DNA of 64,000 nucleotides from an uncultured Solirubrobacteraceae bacterium. GTDB lineage: Bacteria; Actinomycetota; Thermoleophilia; Solirubrobacterales; Solirubrobacteraceae. The position numbers and the translations under genes are program-made. Every line of letters starts with the position of its first letter. Positions within the stretch are counted from its first letter, which is position 1. Location: positions 392,092 through 456,091 of the forward strand of contig CAVUFN010000008.1 in NCBI GenBank assembly GCA_963740765.1, written 5' to 3'. The notes below the pieces were generated by a model. That model did no database searches. It was not told the origin of the DNA and saw nothing but the letters and a program-made list of their open reading frames with translations. Positions 48,101 through 55,757 of this stretch are shown piece after piece.

Positions 48101-49466
48101 TGCCGCCGTGGAACTGCAGCTCGCCGGCGTCGACGCGGGTGGCGCCGTCGTTCTCGAGCGCGAAGTCGATGCGCGAGTTGCTCGCGCCGACCGTGCGCAC
48201 GATCTTGCCGCCGCTGAGGATGTGCAGCCGCGCCGGGGTGGCCTGCTCGCTGTACCAGTGGCCGGTGACGCCGCGGGCGTCGAAGGTGCCGCCCTGCTCC
48301 CACAGCGCGCCCGGGCCGCCCTGCAGGTAGCCCGAGAGCCAGCTGCCGCCGCCCAGGTTGCGCAGCGTCCGGCCGTCATCGAGTTGGACATAGGAGTAGT
48401 TGCCGGGGTCCAGGGTGACGCCGCCGGTGGTCGCGACCTCCGTCACGCCGGAGCCCGACATCGTGCCGCCCGTCCAGCGGAAGTTCCCGTTGACATTCAC
48501 GGTCCCGGCGCCCGTCAGCGCACCGCCGCCGAGCTCGAGGTCGTCGCCCTCGATCGACTTGCCGGCCGGGACCTCCAGCGTGTGGCTGCGGATGATGACA
48601 TCCTCGAAGGTGGTGCCGTCGTCCAGCTGGAGCGGATCGGCGACCCCGCCACTGACGACCCCGATGCGCGCGCCGTTCACTGCGTCGAAGGCGCCGGAGG
48701 AGCCGGTGCCGGTGCTGAACTGCAGCTCGCCGGATTGGGCCTCCACGGTGCCGTCGTTGTCGAGCGCGAAGGCCATGTGGGTGGCGCCGGAGCCTGCCGA
48801 CTTCACCAGGGTGCCGGTGTTGTGCAGCTTGGCGTAGTTGCCGCTGGCGGCGAGGAACATGGACCCCGTCTCACCGCGCAGGTCGAAGGTGCCCGACTGC
48901 TCCCAGACCACGTCCACGCTGCCGGAGACGTAGCCAGCGCGCCAGGCGCCCGTGCCCGTGGTCTCCAGACGCCGGCCGGTCTGCAGGATCAGGTAGCCGT
49001 AGTTGCCCGGATCCATGATCATCGTCCCGGTGGAGCGCGTCGTGCCGCCGTCCTGCATGGCGCCGCCGGCCCAGTCCAGCGTCCCGGTGACGATCGCGGT
49101 GCCGGCGCCGGCCAGGGTGCCCGTCACTCGCATGTCGGTGAAGGTCGACTCCTCGTTGATGCCCGTCGCAGTGACGCTCAGCGAGGAGTTGACGTTCACC
49201 GGCTGCGACGACCGCACGCTCTTGACGGTGACGGAGGTGTCCACGAGCACCGGGTCGGTGGTGCCGAGGACCCCGATGCAGGCGTGGTCGTTGGCGGTCG
49301 GCGTCGCGTTGCCCGTCCAGTTGAGGGCGTTGGACCACAGGCGGTCGCCGCCACCGCCGTCCCATTGGACGGTGCAGGTCGGCGCGGCGGTCGGGGCCGT
49401 CGCGAACACGCCGGCCGCCACGGCGGCGATGGCGAAGAAGAGGACGAGGGTGCGCATTCGGGTCAT
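45117..49466 (-). CDS. secreted 1,449-aa repeat protein (predicted beta-helix/adhesin-like) built of about 200-aa tandem modules; family not recognised
   Basis: ATG 49466 gives the signal peptide MTRMRTLVLFFAIAAVAAGVFATAPTAAP. An N-terminal W..GGG...W....NW.G motif is followed by 5 modules spaced 198-203 aa apart, each with G.L.W.GG.M.G.GTT.V.G.L..DPGNY.Y..L..GRTLR..G.G.W..GY...SRIDFALE.DG....G.L.F.GG. The C-terminal region holds a PA-rich linker and an Arg-rich 70-aa tail. The track ORF's upstream 109 aa are rejected because they are antisense-like and overlap the RHS gene. Confidence 0.8.
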   Translation of the reverse strand: MTRMRTLVLFFAIAAVAAGVFATAPTAAPTCTVQWDGGGGDRLWSNALNWTGNATPTANDHACIGVLGTTDPVLVDTSVTVKSVRSSQPVNVNSSLSVTATGINEESTFTDMRVTGTLAGAGTAIVTGTLDWAGGAMQDGGTTRSTGTMIMDPGNYGYLILQTGRRLETTGTGAWRAGYVSGSVDVVWEQSGTFDLRGETGSMFLAASGNYAKLHNTGTLVKSAGSGATHMAFALDNDGTVEAQSGELQFSTGTGSSGAFDAVNGARIGVVSGGVADPLQLDDGTTFEDVIIRSHTLEVPAGKSIEGDDLELGGGALTGAGTVNVNGNFRWTGGTMSGSGVTEVATTGGVTLDPGNYSYVQLDDGRTLRNLGGGSWLSGYLQGGPGALWEQGGTFDARGVTGHWYSEQATPARLHILSGGKIVRTVGASNSRIDFALENDGATRVDAGELQFHGGSAGAVSSGDFGGTGSGMTSLDGGKFEIGTASFSGVQINGATADVATGATWSGTKLTLAGGTLGGPGDTTASGTLLWKGGTMAGTGTTTVSGALNVDPGNYSYTFLNAGRTLRATGTGTWRSGYLRGQDGAAFAVAGTWEANGETGQFYREGDADSATAPPAFRVEPGGTLIKTGGVSESRIDFALEFDGTVTAQTGTLGFHGGGSGLSTGNLGGNGDDVGASLVAGDFAVGDATFSGGRITGGDVSVAAGAEWSGTNLALNAGSLGGAGDTIATATLRWRGGAMRGTGTTEVSGSLTVDPGNYAYVNLSRGRTLRVNGEATYKTGYIAGARDALLEVAGTLDASSTTGSAYFDDDAQPGARPLVHVLPGGTLTKTTGASASRFDWALEFDGTATAVSGDLEFQGGGGAGTSTGTLGGGATGRAVLGSGDWQLGDAGLAGGRVGGGNVTVAAGKTWSGTSIVLTGGTIGGPGDVTVTNGLDWRGGTMNGAGTTTVSGALDIDPGAYSSASLGRVLRTQGTGVWRTGYIGVDDGVRWENSGTVELNAETGNMYRSQSGPDSPRLVNTGTLKKSAGDGTTSVDLPVDQLGGSVVQESGELRFGAGGTIASSSQGGTYAGGAWALQDGADLTGARFAGGTFRLAAGTPVRFADGAITGGEITGDGDLVLGGDVAWTGGGMRGAGALEQEASGTLELGGYITVERDVYAYGTTRVEGGQIAQPGASRWHNHGTIELAGQSFWSNAYGRNQLLNRGLIVKEPGEWTTSLPNTFNDGTIRVPDGRLSFDRLQQTSDGRLELQLGATEDATGRILTSGYGPARLAGTLDVSLADGYTPAHGDTFSVIEAYGLNGRFATIDGLDYPGPGQLTANWSYSGLDLVASVPTPRPAAPRSPEPAEPDAAVAPDAAVAPEAVVAPESGAADPGNGSAADARTRWTLAVAPGARIKVLSKPRGVRVRLDRRAGVLRVRATRRAARPAVLRYRIVRPNGRTRTVTARLRR
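45370..45423. repeat. 18-bp x3 tandem repeat inside the linker of the 1,449-aa protein
   Basis: GGCGCGACGACTGCTTCC / GGCGCGACGGCCGCGTCC / GGCGCGACGGCCGCGTCC encodes (minus strand) DAAVAP-DAAVAP-EAVVAP. Confidence 0.9.
46020..49140 (-). repeat. five (plus one degenerate) tandem coding modules of about 600 nt
   Basis: DPGNY/DPGAY anchors lie at protein residues 152, 353, 551, 754 and 956. The copies are divergent (protein-level similarity, not identical DNA). Confidence 0.75.

Positions 49467-55757: not shown

Follow-up and report, generated by a model that had tools for sequence, protein, structure and literature searches.

A teneurin-like gene and its domain architecture

The window analysed here, a 64,000-nucleotide stretch of contig CAVUFN010000008.1 from an uncultured Solirubrobacteraceae bacterium, carries on its minus strand a gene for a teneurin-like protein (TLP; 49466..55757), directly followed by a gene for a large secreted protein. 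A sequence-only reading of this DNA had proposed that the first of these genes encodes a single protein of ~2,100 amino acids, in which a Sec signal, Ig-like and TTR-like blocks, a plug, an NHL propeller, a YD shell and an RHS core follow one another. The observation is real; both ends of the gene, an ATG start at 55757 and a TGA stop at 49468-49466, lie where they had been placed, and the domain order was confirmed. By composition and homology, 55757..49466 is one coding unit, yet it is not one open frame, having been deposited as fragments in different frames. The proposal of one ~2,100-residue gene was therefore right for the repaired product, which has 2,094 amino acids, and wrong for the deposited frame, which is broken by 19–21 frameshifts.

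For reconstruction of the reading frame, a custom frameshift-aware protein-to-DNA alignment against three intact homologues of ~2,100 amino acids (P0002, P0003 and P0004) was used, plain tblastn being too noisy for frame mapping. Plots of third-codon-position GC (GC3) by frame showed recurring frame switches from ~55100 to ~53000, and 53020-49466 read cleanly in one frame. The longest uninterrupted open reading frame (ORF) in the gene, 53116..49466, encodes 1,216 amino acids, and the public record (P0001) holds only a 3′ product of 1,174 amino acids (window 49466-52990, minus strand) with a GTG start inside an NHL blade. The repaired translation, guided by P0003, contains zero in-frame stops over its 2,094 residues and is colinear with P0003 from residue 4 through to the last residue.

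Residues 198-1988 of the repaired protein aligned with PDB entries 9pt5_A and 9ifo_A, both named ‘Teneurin-like protein’, with 1,348 bits. These entries are cryo-electron microscopy (cryo-EM) structures of BiTLP from Bacillus inaquosorum (Raoelijaona et al., Nat Commun 2026; PMC13018210). Judged by sequence comparison, the gene is a member of the TLP family. That family, its structure and its significance for evolution were all reported in 2026, and its domains are already in Pfam. According to that study, bacterial TLPs have variable adhesion domains followed by TTR, TIP, FN-plug, NHL and YD-shell domains, with TIP lying between TTR and FN-plug in 96% of them; a C-terminal domain (CTD) of ~15 kDa is kept inside the shell, two autoproteolytic cuts are made, an immunity gene usually lies downstream, and members occur in six phyla, Actinomycetota among them (PMC13018210). 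In a protein database search, 4,927 proteins scored E ≤ 1e-50, and among the matches listed most were of ~2,000 amino acids and had the same Pfam set. With the frames repaired, Pfam hidden Markov models (HMMs) for TTR, FN-plug, NHL, RHS_repeat and YD-shell all matched, and Rhs_assc_core matched through NCBIfam; together with the end-to-end alignment to a solved bacterial TLP, these matches confirm the colinear teneurin-like architecture.

At the N terminus (55680..55757, minus strand, as for all features below), a Sec-type signal peptide, MSRVRILSIAVAACLLLVSVALGAAA, was read by eye from the sequence, with two Arg in its n-region, a hydrophobic core of 22 residues and an AAA|AK site; no twin-arginine motif was seen in the N terminus on the same reading. 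Residues 27-135 (55353..55679) form a CARDB-like Ig (β-sandwich) domain, assigned through similarity to N-terminal residues 45-155 of the homologue P0035 (28% identity, E = 8e-10), for which CARDB is an entry in a precomputed Pfam list; Pfam matches of the block itself were weak and of Ig type (NPCBM_assoc, MG2 and Filamin). A Pro/Thr/Ala-rich linker follows at 55352-55158. The TTR (transthyretin/carboxypeptidase-regulatory-like) domain at 54806..55057 matched Pfam TTR_TEN1-4 with E = 8e-21, the match spanning the block GGVRVTVADHPE from which a TTR-like domain had been proposed.

The next domain, at 54080..54805, takes its name, TIP (teneurin insertion protein), from PMC13018210. The libraries used hold no TIP HMM; the assignment comes from a continuous alignment in which residues ~320-560 are colinear with BiTLP residues ~460-700 and have conserved motifs in common. 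This domain contains AMPGQLPPTTAYTYAAEFSVDE and, near its end, THFTPWDYNFPYGP (54195-54154), a motif that had been taken as the end of the plug region; the motif is present, but it belongs to TIP, upstream of the FN-plug. The FN-plug (53729..54079) scored under the gathering threshold with Pfam FN-plug_TEN1-4 (E = 6e-4), and its assignment was supported by an unbroken alignment with the BiTLP FN-plug in 9pt5_A and by close homologues that have PF24329. It includes the conserved cleavage motif DCGQGG|S (54079-54058), in which CGQGG|S is aligned with C719-NKE-G723|S724 of BiTLP.

The six-blade NHL β-propeller (52484..53463) matched both TEN_NHL (E = 4.5e-31) and NHL (E = 1.8e-28) in Pfam, in six stretches each, and its blades could also be seen in the DNA as six repeats of ~170 nt (52557-53461). 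The YD/RHS shell with its RHS-associated core (49859..52441) matched TEN_YD-shell (E = 4.9e-48) and RHS_repeat (E = 4.8e-31, twelve stretches) in Pfam; the shell is about 870 amino acids long and not the about 700 first estimated. The canonical end of the RHS core, which had been recognized by its motifs, matched NCBIfam Rhs_assc_core (TIGR03696) with E = 1.6e-18. The catalytic residues of the core are the R in MRDY, the D in ARDP and the D in RDPSGL, and comparison with R2103, D2116, D2140 and L2144 of BiTLP gave a residue-by-residue match, with DPSGL|IC identical. DPSGL (49844..49858) is the predicted aspartyl autoprotease site, the cut falling after L and before ICIG.

A YD shell, an RHS core and a DPxGL autoprotease are also found in the conventional Rhs effectors of type VI and type VII secretion systems (T6SS and T7SS) and in the TcB/TcC components of ABC (Tc) toxins, and segments of Rhs, Tse5 and TccC3 structures in the PDB were indeed matched by the window TLP. 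These matches stayed below 65 bits, against 1,348 bits to BiTLP, and were restricted to shell segments (~130-370 amino acids) or to the end of the core. In agreement with the earlier view that the protein has a Sec signal and no T6SS or T7SS adaptor, Pfam found no PAAR, VgrG, DUF6531 or LXG domain in the repaired TLP, nor a TcB-type propeller, and no TcA, T6SS or T7SS family in ten flanking ORFs scanned. The Sec signal, TTR, TIP, FN-plug and NHL are instead the teneurin set. That the gene encodes an Rhs effector or Tc component of the conventional kind is thus extremely improbable.

Frameshifts in the deposited sequence

With P0002, P0003 and P0004 as guides, 19, 21 and 21 frameshifts were found, respectively, at consistent positions and all within a single patch (53021..55076) on the minus strand; the parts of the gene on either side, 55757-55077 and 53020-49466, are free of them. 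The patch covers 2,056 of the 6,292 nt of the gene, and by our arithmetic the chance of finding all 21 there under uniform placement is ~6e-11. No comparable cluster of short frame switches was found elsewhere in the window. Fourteen of the frameshifts are single extra bases and 7 are two-base skips, each of the latter most simply explained by one missing base. Homopolymer error was rejected as the cause of the indels, most of their contexts having no run of four or more identical bases. Collapse of repeats was likewise rejected: the NHL repeats are just 60-77% identical in DNA, the patch lies mostly outside them and no paralogues occur in the window.

The public annotation treats only the intact 3′ ORF as a gene, and this ORF (53116..49466), the sole long uninterrupted one, could in principle encode an N-terminally truncated NHL-YD-CTD protein. 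Its start would fall inside an NHL blade, and the product would have neither a signal peptide nor the FN-plug that seals the shell. Among homologues such an architecture was seen only in fragments at contig edges, and the 2.6 kb upstream are colinear with full-length homologues and conserved against them. We consider a genuine truncated gene very improbable.

A weightier question is whether the frameshifts are real mutations, which would make the locus a pseudogene with no full-length product, or errors of assembly. The frameshifts are, after all, in the deposited sequence, and the public annotation is limited to the 3′ 1,174 amino acids. For comparison, a syntenic relative with 86-92% nucleotide identity (L004; ENA ERZ25039530 contig_45760) was reached through P0121, the sole match in a word-index search with the CTD. 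The TLP copy of this relative (4170-10531 in L004) is itself riddled with 60 frameshifts and 2 stops, mostly at positions other than those in the window, and at ~10 of the frameshift sites of the window exactly the extra base is missing from it.

The ratio of nonsynonymous to synonymous substitution (dN/dS) between the window and L004 was then calculated on a direct DNA alignment, with codons closer than 12 nt to a gap excluded; a first estimate made through the P0003 alignment (0.55-0.67) was discarded as inflated by misaligned frames in L004. The patch gave a value of 0.45, close to those for the remainder of the shell (0.39-0.40) and for the intact partner gene downstream (0.41); the CTD gave 0.16. 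Twenty-one neutral indels would have brought substitutions pushing dN/dS towards 1, so the value in the patch, which is like that of the intact parts, argues against real decay. Nor has the patch lost identity to distant intact homologues, with 55-64% after repair compared with 52-58% among the homologues themselves over the same columns. The repaired frame has no stops, and neutral decay would not place all 21 indels in a third of the gene and spare 3.5 kb.

Several observations nevertheless count against assembly error and for decay. Nanopore error is classically associated with homopolymers, and these indels are not. In the window and in L004 alike, indels abound solely inside the TLP gene, the adjacent 4.3-kb partner gene aligning gap-free, and this restriction could reflect something biological at the locus. 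One frameshift, at 53024, seems to be common to both sequences; given the frameshift density of L004, we estimate that about one coincident position would be expected by chance, and most of the window indels are missing from L004. Contig names of the contig_NNN form in the ERZ250395xx series are in the style of long-read metagenome assemblies, and one related match is titled as an ‘MFD...bin’ metagenome-assembled genome. These names, taken with selection like that of an intact gene, favour consensus error in a long-read metagenome assembly, which we regard as quite probable as the origin of all 21 frameshifts; a true pseudogene we regard as unlikely. Our guess is that strain heterogeneity at the TLP locus among co-assembled populations lies behind both indel-rich copies.

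The C-terminal domain and the coupled β-helix gene

The CTD (49469..49843) has 125 amino acids, of which 25% are Gly and 5 are Cys, and matched Pfam only weakly, to Porin_4. For definition of its family, homologues of the 3′ ORF were ranked by score and the top 120, including ~100 TLPs, were examined; a homologous CTD was found in 49. Their alignment (A1) gave the signature xCxGxSxYxGxGGG...C...C.E.G.G.G...DxCG...GP...K..KxC...[F/W/Y]. When its profile was searched against 1.84 billion representatives, this family, for which Pfam has no model, came to 458 clusters, and in every match listed the domain stood at the extreme C terminus; three long carriers were tested, and all were TLPs, two with SLH anchors. 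Within the homologue set examined, sequence comparison indicates that this Gly-rich family is conserved and not polymorphic. The Cys count is odd (3, 5, 7, 9 or 11) in 48 of the 49 members, and the final residue is F, W or Y in 33. In BiTLP, the cryo-EM density ends at L2144 and a disulfide, C2216-C719, joins the CTD to the FN-plug (PMC13018210); an odd count fits one Cys being kept for the Cys of the FN-plug in the same way.

AlphaFold2 modelling of the CTD with alignment A1 (pLDDT 87) predicted eight long antiparallel strands, all eight amphipathic, with hydrophobic residues alternating with small or polar ones. The top, non-significant Foldseek ranks for this model were membrane β-barrels. 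The family fits the ‘OMP’ class of CTD reported for the TLPs of Paenibacillaceae (PMC13018210), and the strand pattern together with that class suggests that the domain, once released, most likely acts on the membrane or envelope.

The loci of P0006, P0035 and P0110 (L008, L009 and L010) hold TLPs of other lineages with the Gly-rich CTD; in each, the gene directly downstream is convergent, and no co-oriented immunity candidate was seen.

The stop of the TLP gene and the start of the partner gene (45117..49466, minus strand) overlap in TGATG, pointing to translational coupling. The partner is a secreted protein of 1,449 amino acids with a signal peptide, 5-6 tandem units of ~200 amino acids, a PA-rich linker and a C-terminal region that looks cadherin/Ig-like by eye and whose final 147 amino acids have no Pfam match. 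Searches of Pfam, NCBIfam and PDB sequences gave no match for the protein. Two units modelled with AlphaFold2 (pLDDT 93, pTM 0.89) formed a solenoid of short strands, for which the top Foldseek ranks, none significant (best E = 0.02), were the right-handed β-helices Hbp, EspC, Ag43 and EtpA and tailspikes. The passengers of type V and two-partner secretion (Hbp, EspC, Ag43 and EtpA) are thus the closest folds, sharing the short-strand solenoid and the form of a long secreted fibre, and several partner homologues are named ‘autotransporter-associated beta strand repeat’ proteins in their sources. The partner differs from them in having no significant structural or sequence match and a distinctive repeat unit of ~200 amino acids. 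Unlike in type V autotransporters, no β-barrel translocator was found in it with Pfam or NCBIfam, and its host is probably monoderm.

Homologues of the partner lie downstream of TLPs in L001, L002, L003, L004, L011 and L012 and at P0018/P0156, ranging from 500 to 1,700 amino acids as secreted β-helix repeat proteins. The L002 homologue is 37% identical over its full length, and that in L001 is a short form of 492 amino acids. At five of the six TLP/partner junctions inspected, stop and start overlap or abut. The actinobacterial TLPs associated with partners have four unrelated types of CTD: Gly-rich, DUF6973 and two helical. The repeat module also occurs, in other bacteria, inside DUF6531-RHS proteins (P0146, P0168, P0182, P0195 and P0225), in three of which its position was checked and found to be before residue ~800; as far as sequence can tell, this fusion links the module functionally to YD shells.

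A gene downstream was found at almost all TLPs in the 2026 study, with an immunity function demonstrated for one (PMC13018210). The partner, directly downstream and translationally coupled, might by the same logic be the cognate immunity protein of a C-terminal toxin, and an extracytoplasmic location would suit a toxin acting from outside the cell. Against this, homologues of the partner follow TLPs with four unrelated CTD types, and no co-oriented gene follows the more distant TLPs that have a Gly-rich CTD. The size and secreted β-helix nature of the partner, and the presence of its module ahead of residue ~800 in DUF6531-RHS proteins, speak against the assignment as well, and we hold it to be quite improbable. 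The association with four CTD types indicates, by comparison of loci, that the partner is an accessory of the TLP shell and not a cargo-matched immunity protein.

Two genes of ~2,150 amino acids with no precomputed Pfam match, at 1468-7971 of L011 and 1570-8004 of L012, turned out to be full TLPs, one with a DUF6973 CTD and the other with a helical one, and each is followed by a β-helix partner.

The TLP locus is flanked by housekeeping genes, with PdxT/PdxS and RpiR on one side and, as identified by Pfam, Macro, TetR, arylsulfotransferase, sulfatase and Aldedh on the other. The order Pro_dh/Aldedh, TLP, partner, PdxT/PdxS is common to the window, L004 and L002 (55% amino acid identity). GC at the locus (0.70-0.77) equals that of the surroundings. 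The gene had been described as the most accessory-looking element in the window; neither its composition nor its shared gene order bears this out, and the locus does not resemble an island of recent acquisition. A high-GC monoderm host, as was also suggested, is plausible, the named relatives of the gene and of its partner being Actinomycetota, Solirubrobacter and Gaiellaceae. A segment of ~4 kb (56339-60277) with a TetR regulator, an arylsulfotransferase and a sulfatase is missing from the otherwise syntenic L004.

Relation to known systems and proposed mechanism

The closest relative with a known structure is BiTLP, with which the window TLP shares the order adhesion domain, TTR, TIP, FN-plug, NHL, YD shell and CTD, and a CTD of similar size (~12 kDa here compared with the average of ~15 kDa in the 2026 paper). 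Its signal is of the Sec/SPI type, as reported for the TLPs of Gram-positive bacteria (PMC13018210). It differs from BiTLP in its N-terminal module, a single CARDB-like Ig domain with a PT-rich linker, and in a CTD from another sequence family. From the TLP family at large it differs in being coupled to a giant secreted β-helix protein with no small immunity gene downstream, and in having been deposited with frameshifts.

With the metazoan teneurins, represented by chicken Teneurin-2 (PDB 6FB3), the protein shares the FN-plug, NHL and YD shell (372 bits over residues 736-1976), and its TTR domain fits a teneurin Pfam model. It has none of the transmembrane/EGF N terminus, ABD or Tox-GHH of teneurins, and its cargo is predicted to lie inside the shell and not outside. 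The aspartyl autoprotease motif is kept in the window TLP and lost in teneurins (PMC13018210).

The Rhs effectors of T6SS and the TcB/TcC cocoons (PDB 7Q97, 8H8A and 4O9X) resemble the window TLP in having a YD cocoon and, as is predicted for it, autoproteolysis at the RHS core and an encapsulated C-terminal toxin; they differ in delivery, which depends on PAAR/VgrG or on docking of the TcB propeller on TcA. WapA of Bacillus subtilis is reportedly a Sec-exported, wall-associated RHS toxin with WapI as its immunity protein (Koskiniemi et al. 2013). WapA and the window TLP would both be Sec-dependent YD-shell polymorphic toxins of monoderms with the cargo C-terminal to the RHS core, whereas WapA is said to have cell-wall-binding repeats, no TTR, TIP, FN-plug or NHL, a tRNase cargo and a small cognate immunity protein.

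In BiTLP, cryo-EM and mutagenesis have established that the shell closes, that the protein cleaves itself and that the cargo is retained (PMC13018210). By analogy, the window TLP would be exported through Sec, after which its TTR-TIP-FN-plug-NHL-YD superfold would close as a shell, with the last 125 residues inside. The aspartyl protease of the RHS core (R, D, D) would then cut after DPSGL, and the FN-plug would be cut as well, at GG|S. Once freed, the cargo would stay in the shell, probably tethered through its unpaired Cys to the Cys of the FN-plug, and on release this Gly-rich amphipathic domain of eight strands would most likely meet its target in the membrane or envelope. The partner, a fibre from the same operon, may display or present the shell at the cell surface.

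Taken as a whole, a Sec-exported, autoproteolytic TLP shell with an enclosed CTD, in an operon with the partner and with frameshifts that are assembly errors, is in our judgement probable. Beside the indel evidence discussed above, several points weigh against it. The signal peptide was read by eye, Foldseek gave nothing significant for the CTD model (best E = 0.06, TM < 0.46), and no small immunity gene lies between the TLP and its partner or after the partner in the window. The profile of the CTD family does not match the CTD of BiTLP, and membrane action is for this reason put forward here as a suggestion.

The recurrence of the partner with four CTD types, the conserved overlap of stop and start and the fusion of its repeats to DUF6531-RHS proteins elsewhere lead to a further and more speculative idea. 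In an Actinomycetota clade, TLP shell and β-helix fibre might form a two-component surface device in which the fibre displays or delivers the shell, and the conserved Gly-rich, ‘OMP-like’ CTD might be a shared membrane-inserting β module with no need of immunity, in place of a polymorphic enzyme toxin. At present we think this idea doubtful, tentatively as it is offered; a module for delivery or display is missing for TLPs according to the 2026 study (PMC13018210).

The locus serves as a cautionary case, in that dense local patches of frameshifts in long-read metagenome assemblies can mimic pseudogenes; here a full TLP of 2,094 amino acids was hidden behind a public annotation of 1,174. With its recovery, the group of bacterial proteins lately defined as ancestral to animal teneurins gains a member from the Actinomycetota. 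Two features go beyond the published picture of the family. One TLP-specific CTD family appears to be conserved rather than polymorphic, with an odd Cys count that fits a disulfide tether to the FN-plug, and a β-helix partner recurs whatever the type of cargo, which could bear on TLP display and cargo delivery.

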